64,000 nucleotides of DNA from Gammaproteobacteria bacterium (GTDB lineage: Bacteria; Pseudomonadota; Gammaproteobacteria; Eutrophobiales; Eutrophobiaceae). Location: contig CBDCTH010000012.1 in assembly GCA_965222155.1 (NCBI GenBank), positions 1,312,001 to 1,376,000 of the forward strand. Reading direction: 5' to 3'. Under the pieces are notes generated by a model, which did not search any database, was not told where the DNA came from, and saw only the letters and a list, made by a program, of their open reading frames with translations. The position numbers and the translations under genes are program-made. Positions 1 through 57,460 of the stretch are shown piece after piece (position 1 is the first letter of the stretch; each line of letters starts with the position of its first letter).

Positions 1-2
1 GG

Positions 3-1038
3 AAGAGTCCAACGAAGTCTGTACGAAAGCCCGCAACCCAACCGACAAGAGGCACAACAACCGAGCGCACTGGGACGCGTTGGTCCAGTGTGGCGCTGAC
101 ACTGGTGATAGTAGTAGGGGCCTTGCTGGGCGCTGGCGCCTGGTGGGGTTGGCAGGCATATCCTGAGTGGTTTGGGCAGGGTCCCGGAGGTTCTCCGCCG
201 GTAGTGAAGCAGGCAGCGCCGGTAGAGATAGAGACAGTGACACCGGATGCAACAGAGACCGGGGAACTGGAGCGTAAGCGACAGGAAGCTCTGGAGAGAG
301 AATTAGTTGGTGAAATGGTATCCATCCCCGGCGGCACGTTTCGCATGGGGGACTTGGGTGATAAAGGTGATGATGACGAGAGACCGGTGCACAGCGTGAC
401 GGTACCAGCTTTCAATATGGGAAAGTATGTAGTGACATTTACCCTGTGGGACACTTGTGTTGCGGACGGGGGCTGCGGTCGTTACCGGCCGGATGATGAG
501 GGTTGGGGCCGGGGCAATCGGCCGGTGATAAATGTCTCCTGGGACGATGCCCAGGGATACATTGACTGGTTGAATGACAAGACCGGCGGTAATTTCCGCT
601 TGCCGAGCGAGGCGGAGTGGGAGTACGCAGCCCGTGCCGGGAGCACCACGAAGTACCACTATGGCAACAGTGAGTCACAGCTGTGCCGGTATGCCAATCA
701 TGCAGACAGCAGCACGGATATGGACTGGCGGAACAAGGCCTGTTCTGACGGTGTCGGCATAGGCACTGCTGCGGTGGGTCGCTATCAGCCGAACAGTTAT
801 GGACTTTACGACATGCACGGCAACGTGTGGGAGTGGACAGAGGACTGCTGGAACGACAGTTACGCGGGGTCGCCGAGCGACGGCCGCGCCTGGGAACTGG
901 GGGACTGCGGCCGGCGTGTGGTTCGCGGCGGTTCCTGGGACTTCTTTCCGTGGGTACCTGCGTTCCGCCTTCCGTAACTGGTATACCCGCTCGGACCGCA
1001 GCAGCAACGTCGGCTTCCGCTTGGCCCAGGACAAGTAG
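3..1038 (+). CDS. DGR target: single-pass membrane protein with C-terminal FGE-sulfatase (CLec-fold) domain; 5'-partial, +1 frameshift at about 952-954
   Basis: Frame is open from nt 3. TM helix VALTLVIVVGALLGAGAWWGW. Motifs RPVINVSWDDA, RLPSEAEWEYAAR, GLYDMHGNVWEW, RVVRGGSW. The canonical end GFRLAQDK* (stop 1036-1038) is in a shifted frame; the unshifted ORF stops at 977. Confidence 0.93.
910..1029 (+). repeat. DGR variable repeat (VR)
   Basis: 120-nt copy of 2596-2714 with 18 substitutions at TR adenines and one inserted base. Confidence 0.96.
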
Positions 1039-1118
1039 GACGAAGGCGAGATACGATGCAGGTTGAGCAGGGCTGTCTGCCGGGATTCCCTTTAAACTTT
1101 TCCCTTTTTCCCTTTTCT

Positions 1119-1139
1119 GCCCGGCGCATAGCGCCGGGC
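1119..1139 (+). promoter_or_regulatory. GC-rich hairpin downstream of VR (DGR target-recognition hairpin and/or terminator)
   Basis: GCCCGGCGC-ATA-GCGCCGGGC, perfect 9-bp stem, followed by a T-rich run. Confidence 0.65.
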
Positions 1140-1167
1140 CGTTTTTATTATTTATAGGAGTCCCGTT

Positions 1168-1521
1168 ATGCAAACCACAGATACAAACTTACCCCAGGTC
1201 ATCGATGATTGTCATGAACTGCTCAAATGGCTGATACCGTTGCTGGACAAGTTCCCCCGCGCCCGGCGCTTCACTCTGGGGGAGCGCCTGGAATCCGGCC
1301 TGCTGGCCGTCCTTGAAGAGTGTATTGACGCCGCCTATAGCAAGCACAAGCGCACCCAACTCAGTGCCGCTAACCGGCGCCTGGCCTCCGTCCGGCACCT
1401 GTGGCGCCTGGCCTATGAACTGCGGGTGATACCCCGGAATCGTTACTATCATGGGAGTCAGCGACTGGTGGGCATCGGCATACAAATCGGCGCCTGGCAG
1501 AAATCACGGGCGGCGGGTTGA
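1168..1521 (+). CDS. avd: DGR accessory variability determinant (Avd, four-helix bundle)
   Basis: 117-aa basic helical protein with LLKWLIPLLDKFPRARRFTLGERLE; RBS present; directly upstream of the RT. Confidence 0.93.
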   Translation: MQTTDTNLPQVIDDCHELLKWLIPLLDKFPRARRFTLGERLESGLLAVLEECIDAAYSKHKRTQLSAANRRLASVRHLWRLAYELRVIPRNRYYHGSQRLVGIGIQIGAWQKSRAAG

Positions 1522-1524
1522 GAC

Positions 1525-2607
1525 ATGCACCGTATCGGGCGCATCTGGGAACAAGTGGTTACCATGGATAACCTCTATTCGGCATATTGCAAGGCCAGGA
1601 AGGGCAAACGTCGCAGGCCGGACGTGGCGCATTTCAGCCTGGAGCTGGAGCAGAACTTGCTGGTGCTTCAGCAGGAACTGATAACCGGCACATATACCCC
1701 TGGCGCCTACCGGCAGTTCACCGTCTATGAGCGCAAACCCCGGTTGATATCAGTCGCGCCGTTCCGGGACCGGGTGGTGCACCATGCCGTCATGCACGTC
1801 CTGGAACCCTTGCTGGACAAACGCTTCATCCCGGACACCTACGCCTGCCGCAAGGATAAGGGCGTGCACCGGGCGGTGGACCGTTATCAGCAGTTTGCCC
1901 GGGATAACGCTTACGTATTAAAACTGGATATTGCCCGCTATTTTCCCTCCATAGACCGGACCATACTGAAACAGCAACTGGCCCGGCGCATCAAGGATAA
2001 ATATGTCCTGGACTTGTTGCACAGGATTATCGACAACGGGCCCGAAACAGACGTGCCGGTCCGGTTTTTTCCCGGCGATGACCTGGTCGCCGTCAGCGAG
2101 CGACAGCGCGGGCTGCCCATCGGCAACCTGACCAGTCAGTTTTTCGCCAACCTGTACCTGGACGAGTTCGACCACTGGTTGAAAGAGTCCCAACGAGTGA
2201 AGGGCTATCTGCGTTACGTGGATGACCTCTACTTGCTGGACAATGATAAACAAAGGCTGTGGGCGCTACGGGACGTAGTCGCTGATAAACTGCAGGAAAT
2301 CAGGTTGATATTGCACGCTGACAAAACCCAAATTTATCGTACGACGGAACGCGTGGACGTGTTGGGTTACAGACTGTCCCGTTATCGGCGCTGGCTGCGC
2401 AATGACAACGGCTTCCGGTTCCGGCGCCGGTTAAGACACATGAGCAGTATGTATCGGGAAGGACAGATAGACTGGCCAACCCTGAATGCTTTGGTACAAA
2501 GCTGGATTGGGCATGCCCGTCATGCCGAGACGGAGGGGTTGCGGGAGGTGATATTCAGTCGGGTCAGTTTTTGCAGAGGAGCGGGCCAGAGCGAAGCCAG
2601 CGTGTGA
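1525..2607 (+). CDS. DGR reverse transcriptase
   Basis: 360 aa; KPRLISVAPFRDRVVHHA, LKLDIARYFPSI, GLPIGNLTSQFFANLYL, YVDD; no intron maturase or endonuclease domain. Confidence 0.96.
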   Translation: MHRIGRIWEQVVTMDNLYSAYCKARKGKRRRPDVAHFSLELEQNLLVLQQELITGTYTPGAYRQFTVYERKPRLISVAPFRDRVVHHAVMHVLEPLLDKRFIPDTYACRKDKGVHRAVDRYQQFARDNAYVLKLDIARYFPSIDRTILKQQLARRIKDKYVLDLLHRIIDNGPETDVPVRFFPGDDLVAVSERQRGLPIGNLTSQFFANLYLDEFDHWLKESQRVKGYLRYVDDLYLLDNDKQRLWALRDVVADKLQEIRLILHADKTQIYRTTERVDVLGYRLSRYRRWLRNDNGFRFRRRLRHMSSMYREGQIDWPTLNALVQSWIGHARHAETEGLREVIFSRVSFCRGAGQSEASV

Positions 2608-2714
2608 TTCGCGGCGGTTCCTGGAACAACAAACCGAGGAACCTGCGTTCCGCCAACCGTAACAGGAATACCCGCTCGAACCGCAACAACAACATCGGCT
2701 TCCGCTTGGCCCAG
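2596..2714 (+). repeat. DGR template repeat (TR)
   Basis: 119 nt containing 30 adenines and ten AAY codons; matches VR at all non-A positions. Confidence 0.96.
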
Positions 2715-3229
2715 TCCGCCCGTTGCCCGGAGTGGCCGTTTTCACGGAAACGGCCAGCGCGGCAGACGGGTGTCCATGAGCCTGCTTCCGGGTTGGGCAG
2801 GGAAGCCCGGGCAAATAGCGCTGTGAGGAAGATAAGGCCGAGGCGAGTAACGGGTGCGAAAGTCTCGGTGATGGGCTTTAAGCTTGGCGTAAATCACCGC
2901 ACCAGGCAGGAGGCTTCCCCCTGCTACCCGCAATATCTGTAATCAGGCGCGTCCAAGGGCATCGGGTGTTCCCGTTAAATCGCTGAGACGGCGATTATGA
3001 CGGTCAGATTTTCCCGGACTGTGTCCAATCCAGGGAAATGCAGGTCTTCTCAATCACCCAGCCCCCAAGTTATGCCTTGTTCATGTGGTTATATTGGGGT
3101 AACACGTTCATCTTCCCGGCTGCTTTTCTGTCGGCAGAGTCCGGAGAAAGGCTGGTATTGCGTATTTACAAAATATTTTGTACTAACCAATGGATGAATC
3201 TTGTAAATCGTCTAACGGTTAACATTTTT

Positions 3230-3781
3230 CTACTGTCTTCTCCTGGCACTACATAGTCGATGTTCCGCCTCATAGTAACCATCGATGAAATCGCCATCTA
3301 TGAAACGTTTCGCAACAGTGGCAGGGTCTCCCTGGACTTCAAGTGCGTCCAGAGCAGCCGCAAACATCTTTTCGATATCGGCTTTGATATTCCGGGTAAT
3401 TTTGAATTTGCTTCTCGAACGTGACAAAAGACATTTAGAGAAATGGTTATAGTAGTCAAAGACATCTCTGGACCATAAGAAAGTATCTTTACGCATCACA
3501 AGTAAGCGTAGTCGACGATCAAACTCATATAGCATTATGACTTCGTTGAAATGAGTTCCTTCCTCATAGGTACCTGAGATGGTGCCATCCTGTTCTTTCT
3601 TGCGGAATGGGTGCCAGTAGGCGCTCAGACGGTAGTAACTGATGGTTCTGAGTTGAGATAAGGCAAAGTCATTATTATCAATAATCAGGCCGCGATCTTT
3701 CAGTTGTTGCAGTTGTTGTTCAAACGTGAGAGGAGATTTCGTGTAGACTTCAACCACTGTGAGACCTCGGAGCGCAGACAA
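3230..3781 (-). pseudogene. Truncated/chimeric Abi family (AbiD/AbiF, Abi_2) protein
   Basis: N-terminus KSPLTFEQQLQQLKDRGL...ISYYRLSAY...LYEFDRRLR is typical of Abi_2; similarity ends after about 95 aa and the C-terminal HEPN part is missing. Confidence 0.8.
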
Positions 3782-3826
3782 AAAAAGCCGCCAAGGTTGC
3801 GCATTGTTAAGAGGCGTGACGGCTAT
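3779..3826 (-). ncRNA. abiF-like structured RNA upstream of the Abi gene
   Basis: Minus strand AGCCGTCA-cgcctcttaacaatgcgcaacct-TGGCGGCT-T7: 8-bp stem with one G-U pair, large loop and U-tract, immediately 5' of an Abi_2 gene. Confidence 0.6.
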
Positions 3827-4263: not shown

Positions 4264-4787
4264 TCATGGGGAGGGTGTCACGGTAGTCGCTATCTGGATT
4301 TCTGGCGGTAACCCCATAGAATCCGTCTCACCCAATATGTCTTCATTCAGCCGTGTTTCCAATGTCCTGATGTTTTCTATCAGCGATGAAAACGAAGGTT
4401 TGTCTCCGAACAACATGACTTTCATCAGGTTGTAATCGGTTTCCAGGCTTTTATGGAGTTCATCCTGGGGGATCAGCCTGATGCCGTCTGTTTCAATTTT
4501 ACCCAGTTTCATCCAGCCCCTGCGATAGAGCAATTGTGCATGTGATATGACGTTAGTGAACAGCACCCTATATAGACCTTGGAGAGTGAAGTCCCGCCCC
4601 TGAAAAGCAGACGCGGACGATCAGGCGCATCTGTATTGAACAGCACATCCAGTACATGGCAGGTTCAGAGGTCTTTTTCTATATATTCAGGCAGAGTACT
4701 CATTTTTTCAGCAGCAATCCTATATACATTGCGACGCTGATCGTCAGGCAAGTTAAGAAATGCGTTAATTTGCGGATTAATGCTCAT
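4264..4787 (-). pseudogene. AbiEii-type nucleotidyltransferase toxin, inactivated
   Basis: ATG at 4787 overlaps the antitoxin stop; reads ...YIEKDL*TCHVLDVLF...LLFRGGTSLSKVY (TGA at 4665-4667), then jumps to the C-terminal LIPQDELHKSLETDYNLM...PSF segment, implying an internal deletion. Confidence 0.8.
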
Positions 4788-5404
4788 GCCGCATCACCCT
4801 GCAGTTGCTTGATAATAGGAACCGCCCAGGACGGCAGCAGTGCAATGCCCTCCATGAGATCCCGTTTGACGTAATCGGGCAATTGACTGCGTAACCGCTC
4901 TGCGATCCTGTTCTGGGGATACGTGGCAATCCGGCGACCGAACCACAACAGGGCGTTAACGACCGGACAGCCAGGACGTCCGTACCACCGCATCAACCGT
5001 GTGCCTGCGTGCTTGAATTCAATGGTGGTCTGATTCACTTTGACATTACGGCTGGGACCGTCCGTCAGGTACATTGGTATGACCTGCACTGCATTGGTCA
5101 GTCCCAGATGGTTGGCTGCATACATACCGCCGTCGACTACACGGATACCGTCCCGGCGGGTAATAGCGGCCACGGCCTGATCCAGGTCGGGCGGCACAAC
5201 TTGTTTCGTTATAATGCACGTCTGTGGCCAGTCGTACAGGCCCCGTCCAACGCGTCGCAGGCGCCCGCGCGTCACCAGCCTGGACAAGGCCTGGTCCACC
5301 GCGGCCCGTGACCCCAGGTCCAGGAAGTCTTTAGGCGTGCAGACCCACTTGCCGCGGCCATGGCCTCGGACTCTATTCATTATTTTGTCGGACAAATGAT
5401 TCAT
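4784..5404 (-). CDS. DUF6088/AbiEi-like type IV antitoxin (wHTH)
   Basis: DFLDLGSRAAVDQALSRL...LRRVGRGLY, AANHLGLTNAV, YLTDGPSR motifs; upstream of the AbiEii remnant. Confidence 0.85.
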   Translation of the reverse strand: MNHLSDKIMNRVRGHGRGKWVCTPKDFLDLGSRAAVDQALSRLVTRGRLRRVGRGLYDWPQTCIITKQVVPPDLDQAVAAITRRDGIRVVDGGMYAANHLGLTNAVQVIPMYLTDGPSRNVKVNQTTIEFKHAGTRLMRWYGRPGCPVVNALLWFGRRIATYPQNRIAERLRSQLPDYVKRDLMEGIALLPSWAVPIIKQLQGDAA

Positions 5405-5990: not shown

Positions 5991-6275
5991 ATGGATATCG
6001 GGTTTATAGGGGACAAAGACAAATACCAGGAAGTTCGGAGGAAACACCGGATTCAGTTTTATGAGGTGGTATCCGCATTTGATGATCCGAACGGATATGA
6101 AGTTTTGCACCCGACAAGGCATGCAGGACGACGGATGTGGATAGGAGAAACAGCCGGCAGCAGGGTATTAACCTTGATATATTCAGACGAGGAGTTACCA
6201 CTGTACCGGTTAATCACTGCATTTGGTGCAGGAGGAAGATTACTGGATGAATACTACAACAGAAAAAGAATTTGA
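5991..6275 (+). CDS. BrnT-family toxin
   Basis: 94 aa; RKHRIQFYEVVSAFDDP...IGET...LTLIYS...RLITAF. Confidence 0.75.
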   Translation: MDIGFIGDKDKYQEVRRKHRIQFYEVVSAFDDPNGYEVLHPTRHAGRRMWIGETAGSRVLTLIYSDEELPLYRLITAFGAGGRLLDEYYNRKRI

Positions 6276-6414
6276 TTACCAGGCTTACCTGATAGAAAAT
6301 CCTCCGGCCCTGACTGACATTCAGCGCGGGCCGGAGGCGCGTGAGAAACGCCGGGAAGCCGCCTTGAAACGGATTTTGCAGGACAAGCAGTCAGAAGACC
6401 ACGATACGCAGTAA
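6247..6414 (+). CDS. Putative cognate antitoxin, apparently lacking a C-terminal DNA-binding domain
   Basis: Short ORF overlapping the toxin 3' end; assignment is positional. Confidence 0.45.
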   Translation: MNTTTEKEFDYQAYLIENPPALTDIQRGPEAREKRREAALKRILQDKQSEDHDTQ

Positions 6415-11195: not shown

Positions 11196-11528
11196 TTATT
11201 ATCGTTCTCAAATCAGTCGGAGCGATTGCGATCCCGACCGCGACGATCGCAGCCATCCAGCCCCCGCCCGTTATGATTCGATCAACATCTCACGTGCGCG
11301 TTGCAGTTCGGCGAGCGCGTCTCGGGTAAGACCGGCCCGCGAGATAGTTGCTTCCCGAGCACTGTGTATGAGCTCCTCCGCCCTGCGCAATCTCCCCACC
11401 GCCAGCGGATGGAGATTCACGCCGTCGAGAACGATGATGGCGTCTTCCGTATGATATGAGCCAAATAATAGTTATAATCGGCTCATTTTTAAATGTATAA
11501 TGAGATGAATAGAGATTATAATCGGCTC

Positions 11529-12647
11529 ATGAAATATAACTGGCAGCAATCAGATTGGCCACGGTTTACCTATACGCTAGGGGAAGCGGAGGACATACTC
11601 TTTGAGTTTACTGAAAGGGTAGGCCGTATAAGTGGCCTGCTGGAAGGTCTGCCTGAAAACATCAAGACAGAAACCATGATCGACATAATGGTCTCTGAAG
11701 CGATTAAAACGTCGGAGATAGAAGGGGAATATTTAAGCCGTGAAGATGTCAGGTCTTCTATATGTAATCAGTTGGGTATTACCCAAACCCAGGAGCAAGT
11801 ACGTGATCAAAGGGCTAATGGAGCAGGTCAACTTATAATTACTATACGTAGGGACTATGCAAGAAGGCTTACAAAAAAAATGCTCATGGATTGGCATAAA
11901 ATGCTGATGCAAGGGAGTAAAGGCATCACTATTGGGAAATGGCGTACCCATGAAGAGCCAATGCAAGTGATCACCGGCCCAATGGGTAGAGAAAAGGTCC
12001 ATTTTGAAGCACCGCCTTCTGCCGTTGTCCCAGATGAAATGCAACGCTTTATTAATTGGTTCAATAAAACGACTCCCGGAGGCCCACAGGGAATCAACAA
12101 GCCACCGGTTAGAGCAGGTATTGCCCATCTCTATTTTGAGAGTATCCATCCGTTTGAAGATGGCAATGGCCGAATTGGCAGGGCCATTTCGGAAAAAGCC
12201 TTACTGCAAGGAATAGGGCGTCCTGCTTTATTCAGCTTGTCCAAGACCATAGAGGCTGAAAGAAGGGCTTATTATGATGCGTTAAAATCAGCGCAGCGAT
12301 CTAATGATATCACTGCATGGATAGAATATTTTATGCAAACGTGTTTGGATGCCCAGGTTCAGACTGAAGAACTTATTAATTTCACGCTCAAAAAAACCAG
12401 GTTCTTTGATTATTTTAGAGATCAGTTGAATGAACGCCAGTTACGAATTGTTCAACGTATGTTAAAAGAAGGGCCGCAAGGTTTTGAGGGAGGTATGAGC
12501 GCAAAAAAATATATCAGCATTACAAAAACCTCTAAGGCGACTGCGACCAGGGATTTACAGGACTTGGTAAAAAAGAGCGTCCTCAAGCCTAAGGGTGGTG
12601 GCCGTAGTAGCGCTTATGAAGTGAATTTGAATGTTGAAATACCTTAA
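11529..12647 (+). CDS. Fic family protein (DUF4172-Fic-wHTH)
   Basis: HPFEDGNGRIGR Fic motif; WQQSDWPRF N-terminus; ATATRDL HTH. Confidence 0.92.
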   Translation: MKYNWQQSDWPRFTYTLGEAEDILFEFTERVGRISGLLEGLPENIKTETMIDIMVSEAIKTSEIEGEYLSREDVRSSICNQLGITQTQEQVRDQRANGAGQLIITIRRDYARRLTKKMLMDWHKMLMQGSKGITIGKWRTHEEPMQVITGPMGREKVHFEAPPSAVVPDEMQRFINWFNKTTPGGPQGINKPPVRAGIAHLYFESIHPFEDGNGRIGRAISEKALLQGIGRPALFSLSKTIEAERRAYYDALKSAQRSNDITAWIEYFMQTCLDAQVQTEELINFTLKKTRFFDYFRDQLNERQLRIVQRMLKEGPQGFEGGMSAKKYISITKTSKATATRDLQDLVKKSVLKPKGGGRSSAYEVNLNVEIP

Positions 12648-12744
12648 TTAGAAGCAAGTTAAATACATGGTGCGGGTGGTCGTAACTTCTCAATAACCTC
12701 GTACATTTTCCTGGGAGCGAGGGCAAGATACCATCGTTCCGGGA

Positions 12745-12960
12745 GAAGACCCGACACTCGAACAAGCGATTCAAGACCGTGTTCAATGGGCGAGGTCAGT
12801 TCATGAGAGTGACGACATGCCCGCTTTTGAACGTTGCCAGTCCGGTATCCGTAGCCCATTTTATGAGCAAGGCAGATTGTCCGTCCCTTACGAACGTTGC
12901 CTCTGGGAATTTAACCAATGGTGGGCGGAACAATTAGGTGAGCGAATCTTGGAAGGATAG
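12745..12960 (+). pseudogene. C-terminal fragment of a Rieske ring-hydroxylating oxygenase alpha subunit
   Basis: Manual translation DDMPAFERCQSGIRSPFYEQGRLSVPYERCLWEFNQWW; no start codon or Rieske domain. Confidence 0.55.
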
Positions 12961-12980
12961 GAAAATCTATCCGCATCCTC

Positions 12981-13009
12981 TTGAAAACCGGATGTAATTA
13001 CATTATGCT
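12981..13009 (+). promoter_or_regulatory. sigma70 promoter with palindromic operator for the mazEF-like pair
   Basis: TTGAAA-17-TATGCT with the palindrome ATGTAATTACAT (12992-13003) in the spacer. Confidence 0.6.
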
Positions 13010-13044
13010 TACTTAAAGTCGTTTAATGTACAAGGATCAAAATC

Positions 13045-13299
13045 ATGGTTCACTTAGTTAAAATTGGTAATTCGCAGGGTATCAGGATTCCGAAACCACT
13101 CGTAGAACAAGCTCAGCTGGAAGGGAAAGAGCTTAAATTACAGGTAGTCAGCAACGGTCTCCTGGTTACTCCGAATAACAGGGCCAGAGAAGGCTGGAAA
13201 GAATCCATTGAGGCAGCAATAGCTACACATGGTGTTGAAGTAATAGATAATGCATGGTTGGATGCAACATTAACATCCGATGAAGAATTGGAATGGTAA
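13045..13299 (+). CDS. mazE: AbrB/MazE-family antitoxin
   Basis: LVKIGNSQGIRIPK. Confidence 0.9.
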   Translation: MVHLVKIGNSQGIRIPKPLVEQAQLEGKELKLQVVSNGLLVTPNNRAREGWKESIEAAIATHGVEVIDNAWLDATLTSDEELEW

Positions 13300-13622
13300 T
13301 GCCGGAAATTGCCCGCTTCCAGATCTGGCTCATAAAGCTTACTCCGACCCAGGGCAGAGAAATCGGTAAAACAAGGCCATGTATCGTGATTTCACCCAAT
13401 GAAATGGCTGCATTATCTACTGTGCTGGTAGCTCCAATGACAACAAAGGGGTTTCATTTATCCTGTCGAGTCAGGTGTGAATTTCAAGGGAAGGAAGGGA
13501 TGATCCTCCTGGATCAAATCAGGGCGGTTGATAAATCAAGATTAGTAAAAAAACTGGGTGTTATTGATGAGACTGCTCAGAAGGAGTCGTGTAGGCGCCT
13601 CCAGGAATTATTTGCGTACTGA
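13293..13622 (+). CDS. mazF: PemK/MazF-family toxin
   Basis: PTQGREIGKTRPCIVIS, LDQIRAVDKSRL. Confidence 0.92.
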   Translation: MVMPEIARFQIWLIKLTPTQGREIGKTRPCIVISPNEMAALSTVLVAPMTTKGFHLSCRVRCEFQGKEGMILLDQIRAVDKSRLVKKLGVIDETAQKESCRRLQELFAY

Positions 13623-13748
13623 ACTGGTGGTTTCAGGCCGTGACTGCCCATACCGATGGCATGGTTAACAGATTATACCGGAGACCTTGCTAACACTTTC
13701 GCCATGAAGGGATTACCTGTCAGGGAAGTTTGCGCTATACTCTCTCAT

Positions 13749-14102
13749 ATGGGTAAATGTAGCCGACTGATGCTGTTTATTACGCTATTCTCACTCGTCT
13801 TTCAGGTCCCCGCAGGCGTATTTGAATTTTGTTCCCAGACTTCCCGCGAGAACTCCCGGTTTGAAAACCAAAAAGACGTAACAAATATAACAGTGAATTG
13901 TCACCAGACCGAGGCCGACAAGAACAATTCAACTGAAATCTGCGTTGCCCAGCATTGCTGTATCGGCGCCGGCGTCTCCGCCATGTTCCAACTTGATGGC
14001 ACGGGGCCGAATACCAATAGTACGCTCATCGCTTACTTTGGTAACGCCTACCCTTATTCTCGTCTGGACAGTATTTTCCATCCCCCAAAACTTCTCCTGT
14101 AG
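13749..14102 (+). CDS. Small Cys/His exported protein (CopL/DUF2946-like)
   Basis: Hydrophobic N-terminus, CH...C...HCC, ends in HPPK; upstream of a multicopper oxidase. Confidence 0.5.
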   Translation: MGKCSRLMLFITLFSLVFQVPAGVFEFCSQTSRENSRFENQKDVTNITVNCHQTEADKNNSTEICVAQHCCIGAGVSAMFQLDGTGPNTNSTLIAYFGNAYPYSRLDSIFHPPKLLL

Positions 14103-14237
14103 CTCGTCTGTCTCAACAGAGAGTGCGGGCAGTTCTGTTTGATCCGGACGCGTACCCCTTGCGGGGGATATGCCAGGTCAATCCTGTATGGCCTTTGCGT
14201 AAAGGGTCAACCTGTCACATATACGGGGATATAATTT

Positions 14238-16259
14238 ATGCACAAGTTTTTGTTATCCGTACTGCTATGGCACATCCTGTCTGTGCCGTGCGGAAGTATG
14301 GCTGATATGGTCAGTCATGAGTTTGATATCGACTACCTGGATGTCAACGTTACCGGCAAACCGGTGCGTGCCATGGTGATCGATGGCAACATTCCCGGCC
14401 CGACGATACAGGCAAACCTGAATGACACGCTTAAAATTACCTTTAATAACCGGATGGACGTCGAGACTTCCATCCACTGGCATGGTGTTCTCCTGCCGAA
14501 CGATCAGGATGGCGTGCCGTACCTGACAACAGCGCCGATTGCAGCCGGAGGATCGTTAACCTTTGAATACCCCGTCACCCATTCCGGCACCTACTGGTAT
14601 CACGCCCACACCGGGTTACAGGAGCAGCGTGGACTTTATGGCGCGCTGGTATTTCACAACCCGGCAGAGACCTATCATTACGATACGGAACTGGTCCTGG
14701 TCTTGTCGGATTGGACCGATGAACACCCGGGAACGGTGCTGAGGAATCTCAAACGTGAAGCTGATTATTATGCGCTGAAAAAAAATACCGTCCAGTCCTG
14801 GCAGGGTGTGATGCAAAACGGCAGGCAGGCGCTGAAAAACAGGATCAATAGCGCCTTGATTCGTATGGGTCCCATGGACCTGTCCGACGTAGGTTATGAT
14901 GCGTTCCTGATCAATGGAAAACAAAGCCTGCATAATACTGAAATCAGACCGGGCGAGAGGGTCAGGCTCAGGATAATCAATGCTTCGGCTTCCAGTTATT
15001 TTCACGTCGAGTTCAGCGGTGGCGACATGACCCTGATAGAGGCGGACGGCGTGGCCGTCGTGGACAGAACCGTCGAGAGGTTGCGGCTGGCAACGGCTGA
15101 AACCTATGACGTAATCATTGAGATGCGCGCCGATAAACGTTATGAGCTGCGGGCAACGGCGGAAGACGGCTCAGGGTATGCCTCCTATTACCTGGGTTCG
15201 GGTGAACCGGTTCCCGTTCTCCCTGCGATAAAACCCAATCTTTACCTGGTGGGGCATGAAAGCCATAGTCGCAGGCGCGGTAAAACAGTTCACGCTGACC
15301 GGCATGGTTCCATGCACGGTACCAGCGAATATGCCGGTTTGAGGGCGAAAAACCCGACTTCTTTTGATGCGGAACGGAAAACCAGGGAAATAGCCCTGCG
15401 GTTAACCGGGAGCATGGATAGATATACCTGGTCGTTCGATGATAAAACCCTGACCGAGGTCGACAAGATCAGGATCAAAAAGGGTGAGGTTGTACGTTTC
15501 AAGTTAATCAATGAGACGATGATGCACCATCCCATCCATTTGCATGGTCATTTCTTCCGGGTACTGAATGGTGAGCATGATTACGCGCCGTTAAAACATA
15601 CGGTCAATGTGCCACCATTGGATACGGTCATTATTGAATTCGCCGCTGACGAGGAAAAGGACTGGTTTTTTCATTGTCACAACCTGTATCACATGAAGAG
15701 CGGCATGGCGCGGGTGGTGAGTTATTTGCCTGCCGGGGAAGATGATTATCGCAATTCAAGGTACTACCGGTATCACGTTGAAAACGACGATCCCTGGTAT
15801 CGCTTTGCGGATACGTCGTTTCAATCCGATATGATGGCCGGGCGGTTATGGGCGTACAACCGGCGCAATGGTGTTGAGGTGGCGTATGACTACGATTACG
15901 AGGATGAATACGATGTTGAGGTAAGTTACCTAAGACAAATAACGCGCTTCTTATCACTGTATGCAGGCGCCAACTTTGAACGGGACGAATCCGATACCGA
16001 CGACCTTGTAGTAGCGGGCGTAAACTACACGTTGCCGCTGTTAATTGATTCAGAGTTACGCATCGACAGCGACGGTCATTTCCGCTTGGAACTGGAAAGC
16101 GGTCTTCAATTGACGAACCGGCTTCGATTTGATTGGAACTGGAATACCGAAGATGAGTACCGGGTCCGGTTTTCCTATGAAATCAATAAGAAGATGGCCA
16201 TTACCGGCGGGTATGATTCAGATTTCAAGTCCGGGGCAGGGTTTGAGTATCGGTATTAA
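14238..16259 (+). CDS. copA: CopA-type multicopper oxidase with C-terminal beta-rich extension
   Basis: HWHG, WYHAH, HPIHLHGH, HCHNLYHM copper motifs. Confidence 0.9.
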   Translation: MHKFLLSVLLWHILSVPCGSMADMVSHEFDIDYLDVNVTGKPVRAMVIDGNIPGPTIQANLNDTLKITFNNRMDVETSIHWHGVLLPNDQDGVPYLTTAPIAAGGSLTFEYPVTHSGTYWYHAHTGLQEQRGLYGALVFHNPAETYHYDTELVLVLSDWTDEHPGTVLRNLKREADYYALKKNTVQSWQGVMQNGRQALKNRINSALIRMGPMDLSDVGYDAFLINGKQSLHNTEIRPGERVRLRIINASASSYFHVEFSGGDMTLIEADGVAVVDRTVERLRLATAETYDVIIEMRADKRYELRATAEDGSGYASYYLGSGEPVPVLPAIKPNLYLVGHESHSRRRGKTVHADRHGSMHGTSEYAGLRAKNPTSFDAERKTREIALRLTGSMDRYTWSFDDKTLTEVDKIRIKKGEVVRFKLINETMMHHPIHLHGHFFRVLNGEHDYAPLKHTVNVPPLDTVIIEFAADEEKDWFFHCHNLYHMKSGMARVVSYLPAGEDDYRNSRYYRYHVENDDPWYRFADTSFQSDMMAGRLWAYNRRNGVEVAYDYDYEDEYDVEVSYLRQITRFLSLYAGANFERDESDTDDLVVAGVNYTLPLLIDSELRIDSDGHFRLELESGLQLTNRLRFDWNWNTEDEYRVRFSYEINKKMAITGGYDSDFKSGAGFEYRY

Positions 16260-16348
16260 AATCAATTGAAGTCCGCGGTTCCTCCTTAAATCGAAGCGAA
16301 TCGAAGCGAATTGATAATCTGTAGCCGTATGACTACAATATTATTATC

Positions 16349-16636
16349 ATGGAGCTTCATAAAACGGACGTTTATGCCAGCTGGCTTGACGGCTTGCGGG
16401 ATATCCGTGCCAGGGCTCGTGTACAGGCACGGGCCGAACACTTAGCTGCTGGAAATTCGGGAGACGCAAGGCCTGTAAGCGAAGGTGTTTCAGAATTACG
16501 AATTGATTACGGCCCAGGTTATCGCGTGTACTACAAAAAACAAGGCCAAAGAATAATTGTTTTATTGGCAGGTGGTATCAAACGCGCACAAACCAGTGAC
16601 ATCAAGAGGGCCTTGAGTCTGGCTCAAAATTTGTAA
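16349..16636 (+). CDS. RelE/ParE-superfamily addiction-module toxin
   Basis: GVSELRIDYGPGYRVY. Confidence 0.9.
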   Translation: MELHKTDVYASWLDGLRDIRARARVQARAEHLAAGNSGDARPVSEGVSELRIDYGPGYRVYYKKQGQRIIVLLAGGIKRAQTSDIKRALSLAQNL

Positions 16637-16645
16637 GTATGCAAA

Positions 16646-16984
16646 ATGACTAAAACTGTTACTTCTCCTTACGACGTGGCCGAGCACCTTCGCACACCGG
16701 AGGAAATGGCTGCCTACCTGGATGCCTGCCTGGAGGAAGCGGACGGGGATGCTGCATTCATTGCGAAGGGACTGGGCGATATCGCTCGTGCCAAGGGTAT
16801 GTCCCAGGTGGCGTATGATGCAGGCTTATCCCGCGAAAGTCTTTACAAGGCACTTTCCGGGCAACGTTGTCCCACGTTTGACACAATCCTCAAGGTCGTT
16901 CGCGCATTGGGCTTGAAGCTGAACGCTGAAGCTGTACACCCAGCCAATTCAACTGTTCAGCAAACAGTGTCAACTGATCGCTGA
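16646..16984 (+). CDS. Addiction-module antidote protein (HTH)
   Basis: GLGDIARAKGMSQVA...GLSRESLYKALS...PTFDTILKV. Confidence 0.9.
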   Translation: MTKTVTSPYDVAEHLRTPEEMAAYLDACLEEADGDAAFIAKGLGDIARAKGMSQVAYDAGLSRESLYKALSGQRCPTFDTILKVVRALGLKLNAEAVHPANSTVQQTVSTDR

Positions 16985-16999
16985 ATTCTTCAAATTCAA

Positions 17000-17187
17000 C
17001 CGTATCCCATTCTGATTTATTCACGGGCTTTGCTTGATTTTCGGTGTTGTAAAAGCATCAGGACACCTTTTTCAAGCAGTCGCAGATATTTGTCTGCTTG
17101 AGATTTATCCCAGTTCTAATTTGTATGACGCCAAATTTGTGCTACATCCTGGTCGGTTATTGGAGTGAGTCTGTACCTGGTCTTCAT
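17000..17187 (-). pseudogene. ParE-like toxin remnant
   Basis: MKTRYRLTPITDQDVAQIWRHTN*NWDKSQADKYLRLLEK with internal stops. Confidence 0.65.
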
Positions 17188-17513
17188 ATCCGTCCCTAGT
17201 CAGAAATGGTTTAGTGGACTATAGCGAAGAACGGGGCACCTCAAGGTAGAAGTCATTTAAGAATCTGGACCGAAGATTAGGAGTGTCTCAATGCAGACAG
17301 TCACTATGCGAACAATAAATGTTCTATCTCTATGATGTAGTTGATTGTTGAATTGACTGACTTTAAATAAAAAAGTGTGCGTATTTAAGGGTAAAATCAG
17401 GAATAATCACTTCGTTAACTGACAAGGAGCTTCAACCGGACATTTTTCGCGGCGTTCTGAATTTGTCGGTGAATGAGGCATTACTCGCAAAACAATTTCA
17501 AACCGGAGAGTAA

Positions 17514-19349
17514 ATGACAAACTTCAAGGATAAAGCCAACCTTATCTGGGACGTGGCTGACCTGTTACGTGGTGATTACAAGCAGTCTGATTATGGTAAG
17601 GTCATCCTGCCAATGACGGTGTTACGGCGCTTGGACTGTGTGCTGGCGCCTAGTAAACAAAAAGTCCTTGCCTATCTGCCCAAAGCAGAAAAGTTCTCTG
17701 ACAGCGCCAAAGACCTCACATTGAATAAAATTGCCGGAGCAAACTTCCATAACCGCAGCCCGTTTGATTTTGCCAGGATCGTAGCTGACCCCAACCATGT
17801 TGCGGCCAATCTGCGTAACCACATCAATGGCTATTCGGCTTCGGCTCGGGAGATTATCGAGTATTTCAACTTTGATGATCAGATCGAACGTATGGATGAT
17901 CCCAAGGCCGATATTCTGTTTCAGGTGGTGAAGAAGTTTGCCGAGATTGATCTGGCCGATATGGACTCTATGCAAATGGGTTATGTGTTTGAAGACTTGA
18001 TCCGGCGCTTTGCGGAGCAGTCCAACGAGACAGCCGGAGAGCACTTCACCCCCCGCGAGGTGATCAAACTGATGGTGAACGTGCTGTTCAATGCCGACAG
18101 CGAATCACTGACCCAGGCCGGTATTGTCAAGACTCTCTACGATCCGGCCTGCGGCACCGGCGGCATGCTCTCCATCGGCGAACAACACCTCAAGGAGTTC
18201 AACCCTGACGCAAGACTTGAGGTATTCGGGCAGGAGATCAACCCGGAATCCTACGCCATCTGTAAATCCGACATGCTGATCAAGGGGCAAAACCCTGCCA
18301 ATATCAGGTTCGGCAATACCTTTACGGTAGATGGTCTGCGGGACGAACGGTTTGATTACATGCTCTCCAATCCACCCTTTGGCGTGGATTGGAAAAAAGC
18401 AAAAAAAATCATAGCCGACGAACACGACAACCTGGGTCATGCCGGACGTTTTGGCGCAGGGTTGCCGCGCATTAACGATGGTTCGTTGCTGTTCTTGCAG
18501 CACATGATCAACAAAATGAAACTCCCTCCACGGAATCCGGAAGAATCCGGCGGCAGTCGTATCGGGATTGTCTTTAACGGTTCTCCCCTGTTTACCGGCC
18601 AGGCCGGCAGCGGCGAGAGCAACATCCGCCAATGGATTATCGAAAACGACTGGTTGGAGGCGATTATCGCCCTACCGGATCAACTGTTTTACAATACCGG
18701 CATTTCCACCTATGTCTGGATACTGAACAATCATAAAAGCGCCGAGCGCAAAGGCAAGGTGCAATTGATCAATGCCACCGGCAGCAAGGACGAGGAACTG
18801 ATGCAATCCGGTGAACGCAATTTCAACCGCTTCTGGGAGAAAATGCCGCGCTCACTGGGTAACAAACGCAAACAGGTAGCGGAAAACGGCGAAGTAAAAG
18901 GTATAGGCTTTATCACCAAACTCTATGGGGATTTTGCAGAAAACGAGTTTGTGAAGATTTTGCCGAATGAATTTTTTGGCTACTGGCGCGTGGTGGTTGA
19001 GCGACCGCAAAAAGATGAAAACGACGCTGTCGTCACCGTGCGTGAAGGCTCACCCAAAGCGAATGCCAGCCTGCGAGACTACGAGAACATTCCGTTTTTG
19101 CGAAAAGACCCGGATGACGCGGATGGAAAATCGATCCCGCAGAGCATTGATGACTATTTCCAGCGCGAGGTCGAACCCCACTTGCCTGATGCCTGGATTG
19201 ACGAGAGCAAGACCAAAACGGGCTACGAGATTAACTTCACCAAATTCTTTTACGAGTTCAAACCCCTGCGCCCACTGGCCGAGATCAAGGCCGATATTCT
19301 GGCCCTGGAAGAAAGCAGCCTGGAACTGGAAAAGAAGGTGCTGCTGTAA
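17514..19349 (+). CDS. hsdM: Type I R-M methyltransferase subunit
   Basis: GEHFTPREV, DPACGTGG, NPPF. Confidence 0.96.
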   Translation: MTNFKDKANLIWDVADLLRGDYKQSDYGKVILPMTVLRRLDCVLAPSKQKVLAYLPKAEKFSDSAKDLTLNKIAGANFHNRSPFDFARIVADPNHVAANLRNHINGYSASAREIIEYFNFDDQIERMDDPKADILFQVVKKFAEIDLADMDSMQMGYVFEDLIRRFAEQSNETAGEHFTPREVIKLMVNVLFNADSESLTQAGIVKTLYDPACGTGGMLSIGEQHLKEFNPDARLEVFGQEINPESYAICKSDMLIKGQNPANIRFGNTFTVDGLRDERFDYMLSNPPFGVDWKKAKKIIADEHDNLGHAGRFGAGLPRINDGSLLFLQHMINKMKLPPRNPEESGGSRIGIVFNGSPLFTGQAGSGESNIRQWIIENDWLEAIIALPDQLFYNTGISTYVWILNNHKSAERKGKVQLINATGSKDEELMQSGERNFNRFWEKMPRSLGNKRKQVAENGEVKGIGFITKLYGDFAENEFVKILPNEFFGYWRVVVERPQKDENDAVVTVREGSPKANASLRDYENIPFLRKDPDDADGKSIPQSIDDYFQREVEPHLPDAWIDESKTKTGYEINFTKFFYEFKPLRPLAEIKADILALEESSLELEKKVLL

Positions 19350-20566
19350 TGGAACGCTACGAAGCGTATAAAGACAGTGGGGTTGAGTGGGTCGGAGAGA
19401 TTCCACAGGAGTGGCGCGTCTCGACAATCGGTCGCATTGGGCAACTTGGAAGGGGGAGAGTTATTAGTAATGTTGAAATTAATGAAAACCCAGGCAACTA
19501 TCCCGTTTATAGTTCACAGACAAAAGATGGTGGAGTTATGGGTTATTTGGGCGTATATGATTTTGAGGGGGAGTATGTCTTGTGGACGACTGACGGAGCA
19601 AACGCGGGAACGGTTACAAGACGTGTTGGGCAGTTTAACTGCACAAATGTTTGTGGAACTTTACAACCTAAGAACTGGAATGAAATAGATCTTAGATTTT
19701 TGCCATATTTTTTGAACCTTGGTACTAGATTTTCAGTTAGGCTAGATATTAACCCAAAATTAATGAACGGTATGATGGCGAAGGTCCCTTTGGTCCTTCC
19801 ACCCAAAGACGAACAAACCGCCATCGCCAACTTTCTTGACCGCAAGACGGCAGAGATTGATGCGCTGATCGCCCAAAAAGAGCGTTTGTTGGAACTGTAC
19901 GAGGAAGAAAAAACCGTCATTATCAACCACGCCGTCACCAAAGGCCTCGACCCCAACGCGGAACTCAAAGACAGTGGGGTAGAGTGGCTAAGCAAAATTC
20001 CCGTTGGATGGGAGGTTAAGAAGCTAAAGTATACGGCATATCTAAAAAGCGGGAATAATTTAACTTCTGATCAAATTAAAGAAGACGGGGTATATCCAGT
20101 GTATGGAGGAAATGGACTTCGTGGCTATTACCATGGATTTACCCACGAGGGTGAATTCGTTTTAATAGGTCGCCAAGGTGCTCTTTGCGGAAATATTAAT
20201 TACCCAACTAATAAGTTTTGGGCTACTGAGCATGCTGTTGTAGTTGAACCACTATCAGAGTACAAATTTGTATGGATGGGTGAATTATTACGCATTATGA
20301 ATCTGAATCAGTACTCCGTTGCTGCCGCGCAGCCAGGACTTTCGGTTGAGGCGATTTGTAATCTATTCATTCCGTGGCTTTTACTAGAAGAACAGGAATC
20401 CATTGTCGAATACATCGAAGCTGAAACCGCCCGCATCGACGCCAAAATCGCCAAAACCCAGCGCATCATTGAACTTCAAAAGGAATACAGAACCGCGTTG
20501 ATTTCCGAGGTGGTCACAGGCAAGATTAAAGTACCGGAATCATCAACCCAGGAGGCATCCGCATGA
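19349..20566 (+). CDS. hsdS: Type I R-M specificity subunit
   Basis: Two KDSGVEW...IP repeats, two TRDs, ends ALISEVVTGKIKV. Confidence 0.95.
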   Translation: MERYEAYKDSGVEWVGEIPQEWRVSTIGRIGQLGRGRVISNVEINENPGNYPVYSSQTKDGGVMGYLGVYDFEGEYVLWTTDGANAGTVTRRVGQFNCTNVCGTLQPKNWNEIDLRFLPYFLNLGTRFSVRLDINPKLMNGMMAKVPLVLPPKDEQTAIANFLDRKTAEIDALIAQKERLLELYEEEKTVIINHAVTKGLDPNAELKDSGVEWLSKIPVGWEVKKLKYTAYLKSGNNLTSDQIKEDGVYPVYGGNGLRGYYHGFTHEGEFVLIGRQGALCGNINYPTNKFWATEHAVVVEPLSEYKFVWMGELLRIMNLNQYSVAAAQPGLSVEAICNLFIPWLLLEEQESIVEYIEAETARIDAKIAKTQRIIELQKEYRTALISEVVTGKIKVPESSTQEASA

Positions 20567-28197: not shown

Positions 28198-28516
28198 CGT
28201 ATCGTCCCAGGGTTAGCCCGGATAATGCACCGGATTATTTGTCATAAATGGAAAGTTACTTAGTTACTCAGGCATCCTGCCGTCAAAAAATGTGAGCATA
28301 ATACCAGTAAAACTACTACATACTACAGTAACAACAGCCGGCTCAAGTCCACCACCTGGCGGAGACAGTGATCCTGGTCCTGATTTTCAACCATAGGAAA
28401 TAAATAATGGCACTACATAACGCGTCTGGAATCGCCACGTTTGGCTACCGGGGCGCTCCCGGCGAATTGCAGCAGAAACTCGACACCGCAAAGGTCGAGG
28501 TCCTGCGGGGGGTCGC

Positions 28517-29227: not shown

Positions 29228-29262
29228 AACCGCCACAACGCGCCGTCAAACCAGCAAACTGA

Positions 29263-57093: not shown

Positions 57094-57169
<76 letters not shown>

Positions 57170-57284
57170 AATATATACCCCTGAGTAGGGGTAACCCCTG
57201 GAGCAAATCCGGGGCAGGCCCTTGTGGTTGCCTATTAATCCCGAGTTCAGCCTCGGGGTTTTCATTTTACAAGGGTATAACTCT

Positions 57285-57358
57285 GGCTGGGTGGCAGAGT
57301 GGTTATGCAGCGGCCTGCAAAGCCGTCGACGCCGGTTCGATTCCGACTCCAGCCTCCA
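57285..57358 (+). tRNA. tRNA-Cys(GCA)
   Basis: 74-nt cloverleaf, loop CTGCAAA, CCA end. Confidence 0.97.
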
Positions 57359-57373
57359 TTTTTTTACTTTCCC

Positions 57374-57460
57374 GCCCGGGTGGTGGAATTGGTAGACACA
57401 AGGGACTTAAAATCCCTCGGGGGTAACTCCGTGCCGGTTCGAGTCCGGCCCCGGGCACCA
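57374..57460 (+). tRNA. tRNA-Leu(TAA)
   Basis: 87 nt with long variable arm, loop CTTAAAA, CCA end. Confidence 0.97.

Follow-up and report, generated by a model that had tools for sequence, protein, structure and literature searches.

Organization of the locus

The window, that is, the whole stretch of 64,000 nucleotides that was analysed, opens inside a gene for a membrane kinase and continues with avd, a reverse transcriptase (RT) gene, a template repeat (TR) and a conserved structured RNA, all on the + strand. The kinase gene, called target C below, encodes a Ser/Thr kinase, a transmembrane (TM) helix and an FGE-sulfatase/CLec domain, in this order. Its 3' two-thirds occupy positions 1..977 (the ORF 3..977 is open at its 5' end), and the gene starts at L001:19094, 906 nt upstream of window base 1. 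Target C closes an operon-like run of same-strand genes for FHA, PP2C-phosphatase, MotA/ExbB and trypsin-FHA proteins.

The gene avd (accessory variability determinant; 1168..1521) encodes an intact protein of 117 aa. It matches the Pfam family bAvd (4.4e-17), the NCBIfam equivalog NF033474 DivGenRetAVD (92.5 bits, for a cut-off of 80) and PHROG 3206, 'Avd protein of DGR' (1.2e-20). The accessory protein encoded beside the RT of DGRs is either Avd or HRDC. The RT gene (1525..2607) is also intact and encodes 360 aa, with matches to RVT_1 (5.8e-23) and phrog_1423 (1.1e-118).

In RTs of the DGR clade, [LIV]GxxxSQ replaces the motif of group II introns, and the maturase/endonuclease extension is absent. 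In the RT described here, the corresponding motif is IGNLTSQ (residue 199), and YVDD is found at residue 231. Its closest solved structure is 8ub7_A, a reverse transcriptase of 328 aa (E 4.5e-49), compared with E 8.9e-20 for the best structure of a group II intron RT, and with the group II RT/maturase model it reaches 136.9 bits, under the cut-off of 300. By its motif, structural relative and profile matches, the enzyme is classified as a DGR-type RT and not as one of the group II intron kind. The two reading frames are intact, with the SQ motif and YVDD, as the original prediction had stated. The genome of 4.55 Mb contains one DGR-type RT and one avd; other RT-like matches are 24–25% identical.

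Template repeat and variable regions

The TR (2596..2714; 119 nt) shares its first 12 nt with the end of the RT gene and aligns with the variable region (VR) of target C, VR_c (910..1029; 120 nt). A global alignment of the two confirms the 18 substitutions originally reported, all of them at TR adenines (18 of the 30 A in 119 nt); there are 10 A>T and 8 A>G changes. For substitutions scattered randomly along the 119 positions, the chance that all 18 hit an A would be (30/119)^18, or ~2e-11. Read in the frame of the target, the TR has the ten AAY codons already noted and a single AAA codon; of its 30 adenines, 29 are in codon positions 1–2. The original prediction also claimed that there is no non-adenine drift between the repeats. 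This stands for the substitutions, none of which is at a non-adenine position in the formal alignment, and fails for a 1-nt insertion that makes VR_c one nucleotide longer than the TR (see below).

A search of the genome with the TR revealed matches in two more kinases of the same build, 9.5 and 16 kb upstream (targets A and B, with VR_a and VR_b), and a remote match, VR_d, 870 kb away. VR_a differs from the TR by 17 mismatches, 16 of them at adenines, the only other change being T>G; in VR_b the figures are 19 of 20, with a single G>T. VR_d is a 3' remnant truncated by an IS, with 21 of its 27 mismatches at TR adenines and six elsewhere. With at least three full targets plus a remnant, the element goes beyond the single target implied by the original prediction.

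A further candidate, VR_e (C12:1018332-1018450), was rejected as a current target: it has 44 mismatches, only 24 of them at adenines, and six fall in the last 21 nt. It is probably a drifted paralogue that is no longer a target. The protein that ends with VR_e is TIGR00375-like/FGE and has 519 aa.

The A-free, IMH-like 3' end of the TR and VR marks the 3' limit of mutagenesis in DGRs, and directional cues separate the VR from the TR. At this locus, the last 20 nt of the repeat (columns 100–119) are the same in the TR, VR_a, VR_b and VR_c. The only adenine of this block, in column 118, is unchanged in all three VRs, and the last altered adenine in the comparison is in column 99. Beyond column 119, the TR and VR sequences are wholly unlike. 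No IMH/IMH* difference was seen within the repeat when the TR was compared with VR_a, VR_b and VR_c.

Target kinases

All three full targets have the kinase motifs (the G-loop GAGGFG, VAIK, HRDIK and DFG), with Pkinase E-values of 7.2e-32, 1e-31 and, for target C, 4.3e-35 (on L001:19094-19999). There is one TM helix between the kinase and the CLec domain in each of the three; in target C a hydropathy scan places the single hydrophobic helix at aa 327–353. In targets A and B (2.8e-59 and 5.6e-60), the FGE-sulfatase domain extends to the C-terminus. In target C it is found on window positions 3–977 (1.2e-53) and covers only model positions 3–223 of 255. Among the PDB relatives of the C-terminal domain of target A are FGE, PvdO and the variable protein of Treponema, 2y3c (3.8e-12). 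The VR of a DGR typically ends a ligand-binding domain of CLec fold (or Ig fold), and the family and structure matches agree with the CLec/FGE fold first proposed.

From the simple hydropathy scan, the kinase is predicted to be cytoplasmic and the FGE/CLec domain, the last ~40 codons of which form the VR, extracytoplasmic. Target C had been described as a host envelope protein. It can now be specified as a transmembrane Ser/Thr receptor kinase, the 5' half of whose gene lies upstream of the window.

A frameshift in VR_c as assembled

The insertion in VR_c (951..954) is either T951 or one of the G residues 952–954, its placement being ambiguous. It shifts the frame by +1, and the spacing of the repeats across it is 1686 instead of 1685. 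As a consequence, the frame of target C stops early, at the TAA 975–977. The missing C-terminus is present out of frame (953..1038), ending in ...GFRLAQDK with a stop at 1036–1038, and the ORF 799..1038 in the +1 frame encodes the C-terminal sequence common to the paralogues A and B. The target C copy is broken as assembled.

Three public runs (X1, X2 and X3) bear on this base. The data are contigs, not reads, mapped to the stretch at 85% likeness. Every contig over positions 951–956 is one base shorter than the window: five contigs in X1 (177.2/177.1 depth units), seven in X2 (257.5/257.5) and one in X3 (14.6/14.6), although, since paralogous VRs, and possibly VRs of related organisms, co-map, the absence of the extra base is assigned to locus C with less than certainty. 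The consensus of mixed reads would be expected to fail precisely at a heterogeneous VR. We consider the extra base somewhat likelier to be a consensus artefact, or a minority allele of a heterogeneous VR, than to be fixed.

A real and fixed insertion, with targets A and B functional, has somewhat less than an even chance. It would be a retrohoming error, an indel arising during cDNA synthesis or integration, that switched off target C; another retrohoming event could then restore the gene. VR indels that cause frameshifts are described across DGR lineages in PMC5758913. The assembly is otherwise clean, with 50 non-overlapping ORFs of at least 100 aa in the window, two of which, of 1012 and 903 aa, have complete sets of domains, so that a random consensus error exactly within the VR would be a coincidence. 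It is the contigs of the three runs, all without the extra base, that weigh against fixation.

Evidence for recent diversification

Between VR_a and VR_b there are differences at 23 of the 119 positions, 21 of them at TR adenines; both VRs are embedded in identical flanks (563 nt before and 72 nt after) within a stretch of 754 nt that is otherwise the same. Divergence limited to the VR amid identical flanks indicates that diversification came after a recent duplication.

The public runs point in the same direction. Contigs of X1 over positions 1111–3000 are identical to the window, and in runs X1–X3 contigs with identical avd, RT and TR bear VR variants that are absent from the assembly. In X1, G at position 942 accounts for 147.3 of 177.1 depth units and A at position 947 for 129.9 of 177.1; at least ~100 units must carry a combination found in none of the VRs of the assembly. 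All 11 of the listed variant places within the VR are templated by TR adenines. Paralogous VRs, and possibly also those of related organisms, co-map in these data, so this polymorphism belongs to locus C with less than full certainty.

One congener (G018) has the same avd, RT and TR arrangement, with an RT 80% identical and a TR 90% identical to those of the window; within G018, VR and TR differ at 14 positions, 13 of them adenines. Another congener (G015) retains only RT residues 23–181, beside several VR-like repeats; its matches to the TR of G018 are 73–80% identical, and no intact TR was seen among them. DGR decay does occur in this genus, as the remains in G015 indicate. This raises the alternative of a recent fossil, in which the VR differences record past retrohoming, diversification has now ceased and target C is a true pseudogene. 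The frameshift does sit in the VR nearest to the RT, and VR_d is an IS-truncated remnant with six non-adenine mismatches. The intact avd, RT, TR and structured RNA argue in the opposite direction, as do the near absence of non-adenine substitutions (none in VR_c, one each in VR_a and VR_b), the confinement of the VR_a/VR_b divergence to the VR and the additional variants in the runs. We regard the fossil as improbable. From the sequences compared, this is a real and probably active cellular DGR with several targets, and the recent activity put forward in the original prediction is supported.

Structured RNA and other non-coding motifs

A conserved structured RNA, Spacer-like, is predicted directly 3' of the TR (2715..~2867, + strand). 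RNAalifold applied to six aligned loci gives 45 predicted pairs, of which 21 show compensatory changes. The predicted fold includes a 10-bp stem with a tetraloop (2733..2756), similar to an Avd-binding stem-loop. The block 2777–2789 can pair with 2578–2588, upstream of the TR, in a predicted cPRT-Stop-like duplex; the partner blocks are present in all four loci tested, with one G-C to A-U swap. Folded as a single sequence, the TR and its flank are no more stable than shuffled sequences (z -0.31), and the evidence for the structure is thus the comparative fold of just six related sequences. By analogy with the Bordetella phage DGR RNA described in bioRxiv 10.1101/2023.10.23.563531, the RNA may provide Avd-binding and Stop functions. 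Rfam at gathering thresholds found no family over positions 1–3000.

Between target C and avd there is a terminator-like motif, a 9-bp all-GC hairpin followed by a T-run (1119..1149, + strand); the hairpin recurs downstream of VR_a and VR_b. We looked for a cruciform 3' of the VR like that of BPP-1, but the sole strong hairpin (1119–1139) lies ~90 nt past the VR and is this terminator-like one, which we do not take for a target-recognition element. A promoter scan of positions 900–3300 gave no sigma-70-like site on the + strand, and one site overall against 1.3 expected.

Genomic context and distribution

The DGR lies in a variable island with Abi, toxin–antitoxin, type I R-M, GmrSD and transposase fragments. 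Its RT was found in just two of the 22 other species of the genus searched. The nearest RTs outside the genus (55–58%) are in MAGs of another phylum; the MAGs that hold the nearest outside RTs are of Nitrospira and Pseudomonadales. Horizontal transfer is likely, given this patchy presence within the genus and the relatives in another phylum. Such features would suit a DGR that, like the one of BPP-1, varies a phage receptor-binding protein and is carried by a prophage or some other mobile element. The gene content speaks strongly against it.

The 38 kb upstream and the 61 kb downstream, ~100 kb in all, yielded no capsid, tail, terminase, portal, lysis or integrase family. Pfam gave no phage family among 57 ORFs and 31 further ORFs, and a PHROG search gave no match for 24 of 25 otherwise unassigned ORFs. 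The one weak match (E ~1e-4, tape-measure-like; L001:18174-18998) falls within the operon of FHA and kinase genes. The targets are kinases, and one VR is 870 kb off; according to PMC5758913, remote VRs occur almost only in non-phage DGRs. A phage origin of this kind is very improbable. The cellular DGR proposed from the lack of phage genes downstream is consistent with these results, and inspection of the upstream contig for prophage genes leads to the same view.

Comparison with known systems

The locus resembles the DGR of Bordetella phage BPP-1, whose RT-Avd-RNA particle is described in bioRxiv 10.1101/2023.10.23.563531, in its Avd and an RT with I-G-x-x-x-S-Q, in substitutions confined to adenines between TR and VR and in the position of the VR at the C-terminus of a CLec domain. 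These adenine-only changes, Avd and the DGR-type RT support the signature of BPP-1-type retrohoming recognized in the original prediction. The BPP-1 order is mtd-avd-TR-brt, in which the TR and Spacer precede brt. Here, by contrast, the TR follows the RT, the context is chromosomal, there are several targets including a remote one, and the CLec domain is of the FGE-sulfatase and not of the Mtd type. The structure 8ub7_A has I181, G182 and Q187, the residues named for bRT in bioRxiv 10.1101/2023.10.23.563531. From this numbering, 8ub7 would be the BPP-1 enzyme; the PDB entry is titled simply 'Reverse transcriptase'.

As in Treponema denticola TvpA (2y3c), the variable domain is a CLec of the FGE-sulfatase type. 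TvpA is a lipoprotein devoid of a kinase domain, unlike the targets described here. In T. denticola, one TR serves multiple remote targets, as reported in PMC5758913.

In cyanobacterial DGRs, VR-bearing CLec domains are found at the C-terminus of Hanks-type kinases, and a role in tuning regulatory or signalling pathways was proposed (Vallota-Eastman et al. 2020, PMC7517822). The present system shares the kinase N-terminal to the CLec/VR, and the paralogues and remote targets in one genome. It differs from the cyanobacterial proteins as described in that report, most of them predicted to be cytosolic, by the TM helix between kinase and CLec in all three targets and by the location of target C within an FHA/PP2C operon.

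Thiohalocapsa sp. PB-PSB1 has nine DGR loci and 15 targets, mostly with conflict-system domains such as NACHT, CHAT and TIR; loci that are incomplete and targets that are remote undergo diversification in trans, the loci are remodelled by transposons, and natural populations show diversification (Dore et al. 2024, PMC10907252). Like the DGRs of that organism, the element described here is cellular and has several CLec targets; some of the many targets in PB-PSB1 also have TM and Pkinase domains. In contrast to the system as reported there, it has one RT/TR and kinase targets only. The published work cited here already includes kinase–CLec targets, cellular DGRs with multiple or remote targets, and VR indels that cause frameshifts. 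A large DGR catalogue of ~31,000 entries, mentioned in bioRxiv 10.1101/2023.10.23.563531, may list this element or one nearly identical to it.

Proposed mechanism and significance

We consider it highly probable that the locus is a complete chromosomal DGR, in the order target-avd-RT-TR-structured RNA, that varies at least three kinase targets and was recently active. By analogy with BPP-1, RT and Avd would bind a transcript that runs from the 3' part of the RT gene through the TR and the structured segment of ~150 nt; reverse transcription would misincorporate nucleotides opposite template adenines, and the cDNA would take the place of the homologous VR (119 nt) with which the target genes end. 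The targets are paralogous single-pass membrane Ser/Thr kinases whose varied part would form the ligand-binding tips. Most likely, the product is a small repertoire of receptor kinases, with tips varied by the element, that feeds phospho-Ser/Thr signalling. The operon of target C holds both readers (FHA) and an eraser (PP2C) of phospho-signals.

To our knowledge, DGRs are the only natural systems of targeted protein hypermutation in prokaryotes. The present locus is a tidy case for the question of what cellular, non-phage DGRs do, and in its VR_a/VR_b pair, where the flanks are the same, diversification can be read straight from the genome. To the kinase–CLec targets of DGRs already in print, the locus contributes one more example and a wiring diagram open to testing; the picture itself is unchanged. 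A more far-reaching model, which we think rather unlikely, is that one DGR continually rewrites the TM receptor-kinase repertoire, with periplasmic lectin tips that feed a shared FHA/PP2C/protease operon for phospho-signalling and VR frameshifts, as retrohoming errors, that act as reversible on/off switches of individual receptors. If true, it would represent antigen-receptor-like adaptive sensing outside cyanobacteria and multicellular sulfur bacteria, the groups from which targets of this sort had been described.

Template and variable repeats

Formal alignment of the template repeat (TR; 2596–2714, 119 nt) with the variable region of target C (VR_c; 910–1029, 120 nt) gives 18 substitutions, all 18 at TR adenines (10 A>T and 8 A>G). 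Adenines occupy 30 of the 119 TR positions, which puts the chance of such a distribution at about 2e-11. Read in the frame of the target, TR contains ten AAY codons and one AAA, and 29 of its 30 adenines lie at codon positions 1–2. The original prediction had given the same numbers of substitutions, adenines and AAY codons, which are confirmed. Its claim of no non-adenine drift holds for substitutions, but a one-base indel was overlooked: VR_c carries one additional base at 951–954 relative to TR. The repeat finder returns two blocks (910–941/2596–2627 and 953–1029/2638–2714), with spacings of 1686 and 1685, i.e. one base apart.

The avd and reverse transcriptase genes

The avd gene (1168–1521) matches Pfam bAvd, the PHROG family 'Avd protein of DGR' and the NCBIfam DGR-Avd equivalog, the last at 92.5 bits (cut-off 80). 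The reverse transcriptase (RT; 1525–2607, 360 aa) has the motifs IGNLTSQ and YVDD. Among solved structures, 8ub7_A is closest to it (E 4.5e-49), against 8.9e-20 for the best group II intron RT, and on the group II RT/maturase model it scores 136.9 bits, far under the cut-off of 300; the assignment to the diversity-generating retroelement (DGR) rather than the group II type stands. The PDB title of 8ub7_A is only 'Reverse transcriptase'; we take the chain to be the Bordetella phage bRT because it has I181, G182 and Q187, the bRT residues named in a cryo-EM preprint (bioRxiv 10.1101/2023.10.23.563531).

The source genome contains a single DGR-type RT and a single avd. It also has four stretches that resemble an RT (contig C12 around 32706, 1282706 and 2850047; contig C1 around 17552), with 24–25% identity to the DGR RT; three of these four give the same alignment statistics, as a repeated element would, possibly group II introns. 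The one of the four that lies in the upstream locus L002 (L002 8958–9371) is fragmented and surrounded by transposase fragments.

Variable receptor kinases

A genome-wide TR search for remote variable regions gave four matches besides VR_c, all on C12. VR_a (1296678–1296796; 17 mismatches to TR, 16 at adenines) and VR_b (1303364–1303482; 20 mismatches, 19 at adenines) close the genes of targets A (897 aa) and B (854 aa), both with Pkinase and FGE-sulfatase domains (Pfam). The target C ORF starts 906 nt before the first base of the window (the window being C12:1312001–1376000) and also encodes a protein kinase domain. All three full targets have the kinase motifs (G-loop, VAIK, HRD, DFG) and, in a hydropathy scan, one hydrophobic helix at about aa 325–353, between the kinase and the lectin-like domain. 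That scan, the only basis for a topology, suggests that the kinase would be cytoplasmic and the variable domain extracytoplasmic. For target A, the C-terminal domain has matches to PvdO, to formylglycine-generating enzymes and to 2y3c, a variable protein of Treponema denticola. The FGE/CLec fold originally proposed is thus borne out by domain matches, but the host protein is a kinase whose 5' part lies upstream of the window, and there is more than one target.

VR_d (443888–444006; 27 mismatches, 21 at adenines) is a remnant 870 kb away: no more than the final ~50 codons of its target gene are left, severed by an insertion sequence with an IS240-type DDE transposase. The transposase lies immediately upstream on the minus strand (5206–5766 in L003, C12:438001–450000), and it and VR_d fall within L003 5206–6015. 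More transposase fragments lie nearby (L003 3320–4769). VR_e (1018332–1018450; 44 mismatches, 24 at adenines) was rejected as a current target: it is a drifted look-alike with six mismatches in the last 21 nt, though its gene is intact (519 aa).

Common to the three full targets is a pyrimidine-rich stretch ending in an identical 9-bp GC hairpin, ~90 nt after the VR (4806–4915 and 11492–11601 in L001, the stretch carrying targets A and B; 1039–1149 in the window). A T-run follows the hairpin only in the copy preceding avd.

Frameshift in VR_c as assembled

The indel in VR_c shifts the target C ORF to a stop at TAA 975–977, and the Pfam FGE-sulfatase match on ORF 3–977 therefore ends at model position 223 of 255; the conserved C-terminus runs on in the +1 frame, to 1038. 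In three public sequencing runs, one base of the window is missing from all contigs over 951–956 (X1, 177.2 of 177.1 depth units; X2, 257.5 of 257.5; X3, 14.6 of 14.6), although these contigs cannot be assigned to locus C. The additional base is slightly more likely than not an artefact or a minority allele. The rest of the window seems cleanly assembled (50 non-overlapping ORFs of at least 100 aa, many long with complete domains), and it would take coincidence for a random error to fall precisely inside the VR, unless the heterogeneity of the VR produced it. A real, fixed frameshift has somewhat short of an even chance: VR indels that shift the frame are reported across DGR lineages (PMC5758913), but the same unassigned contigs speak against it.

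Evidence of activity

The flanks of VR_a and VR_b are identical over 563 nt before and 72 nt after, while the VRs themselves show 23 differences over 119 positions, 21 of them at TR-adenine sites. At least one of the two, or both, was therefore rewritten after a recent duplication or conversion, and this pair is the strongest internal evidence for DGR activity. In the congeneric genome G018, VR and TR differ at 14 positions, 13 of them adenines.

The public runs were analysed as contigs only, mapped at 85% likeness, so that paralogues map together and so, perhaps, do relatives, the runs being metagenome-like. Over 1111–3000, X1 contigs match the window exactly. Within the VR, 147.3 of the 177.1 depth units in X1 have G942 and 129.9 have A947, so that a combination absent from VR_a to VR_d is present in at least about 100 units. 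The stretch 951–956 is crossed by five distinct contigs in X1 and seven in X2, where this genome offers at most three or four loci, and X3 adds a further, different variant. Each of the 11 variant places listed within the VR is TR-adenine-templated; 160 further differences lie beyond those listed, and contigs drop rare variants.

Structured RNA around TR

About 150 nt 3' of TR (2715 to about 2867) are conserved in G018, three Nitrospira MAG loci and one Pseudomonadales MAG locus. RNAalifold on six sequences predicts 45 pairs, 21 with compensatory changes, the clearest element being a 10-bp stem with a tetraloop (2733–2756). Upstream of TR, 2578–2588 can pair with 2777–2789; equivalent partner blocks are present in all four loci tested, one base pair having changed from G-C to A-U. 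A single-sequence fold of TR plus flank was no more stable than shuffles. We infer a function for these RNA elements in this locus.

Genomic neighbourhood

Targets B and C are separated by a plus-strand series of genes: FHA protein, MotA/ExbB-like protein, FHA protein, PP2C phosphatase, FHA-bearing trypsin-like protease, FHA protein and one ORF without assignment. By gene content, these and target C form a predicted Ser/Thr phospho-signalling operon. Further upstream, L002 carries a transhydrogenase, transposase fragments, an RT fragment, AbiEii and HipA.

The genes 3' of TR are, in order, an Abi_2 gene directly downstream of the DGR (3230–3781, minus), preceded by an Rfam abiF RNA motif (3786–3823, minus; 40.2 bits, gathering score 37); a DUF6088/AbiEi-like gene (4784–5404, minus) with a small unassigned partner ORF (4264–4566, minus); and a BrnT-like toxin (5991–6275, below the Pfam cut-off), whose antitoxin could be the overlapping 63-aa ORF 6223–6414. 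Farther downstream come a defence/addiction cluster (11493–25283: Fic/DOC with DUF4172, MazF/PemK toxin, HI1420-type antidote and type I R-M genes HsdM, HsdS and HsdR), PIN toxins and ordinary metabolic genes. GmrSD endonuclease sits between HsdS and HsdR. A 336-aa ORF (30604–31614, minus) weakly matches eCIS_core (PF13699, 3.8e-06); three ORFs flanking it (27241–30567) have no Pfam or PHROG family. Three consecutive tRNA genes lie at 57094–57457.

The proposed non-phage context holds with the upstream stretch included: a Pfam scan of 57 + 31 ORFs found no phage structural, packaging, lysis or integrase family. Among 25 otherwise unassigned ORFs, 24 have no PHROG and one has matches of the coiled-coil kind (E about 1e-4). 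Remote targets are reported almost exclusively in non-phage DGRs (PMC5758913), so the remote VR favours a cellular element.

Distribution and comparison with published systems

The DGR RT was found in two of 22 other species of the genus searched, one copy being truncated. The module is also present in G018, whose RT is 80% identical. Because the RT is patchy in the genus and its nearest outside relatives (52–58% identity) are in MAGs of other lineages, the DGR was likely acquired horizontally. The second congener, G015, retains only RT residues 23–181 (79% identical) at G015:C6:112001–130000, with several VR-like repeats, among them a truncated, identical pair. No intact TR was seen at this locus, which appears to be a decayed form of the same element. 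G018 has four further TR-like matches ~2.5 Mb from its RT (G018:C2:4151102–4157488); one, 95% identical over TR positions 21–119, may represent another TR, or else a VR with hardly any diversification.

Kinase–CLec variable proteins are described as the commonest multidomain DGR targets in cyanobacteria (PMC7517822), and the combination also occurs here. Shared with Thiohalocapsa PB-PSB1, for which CLec targets with Pkinase and TM, trans-acting/remote targets and transposon-reshaped loci are described (PMC10907252), are TM and Pkinase CLec targets, a remote VR and an IS-cut locus. Among the findings of Wu et al. are a class of kinase-containing targets, several targets in about 15% of DGRs and frameshifting VR indels (PMC5758913). 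Kinase–CLec, multiple and remote targets and frameshifting indels are all already published. Somewhat particular here are the three uniform single-pass receptor kinases, the position of one of them in an FHA/PP2C operon, and the VR_a/VR_b pair, whose duplicated flanks give clean evidence of diversification.
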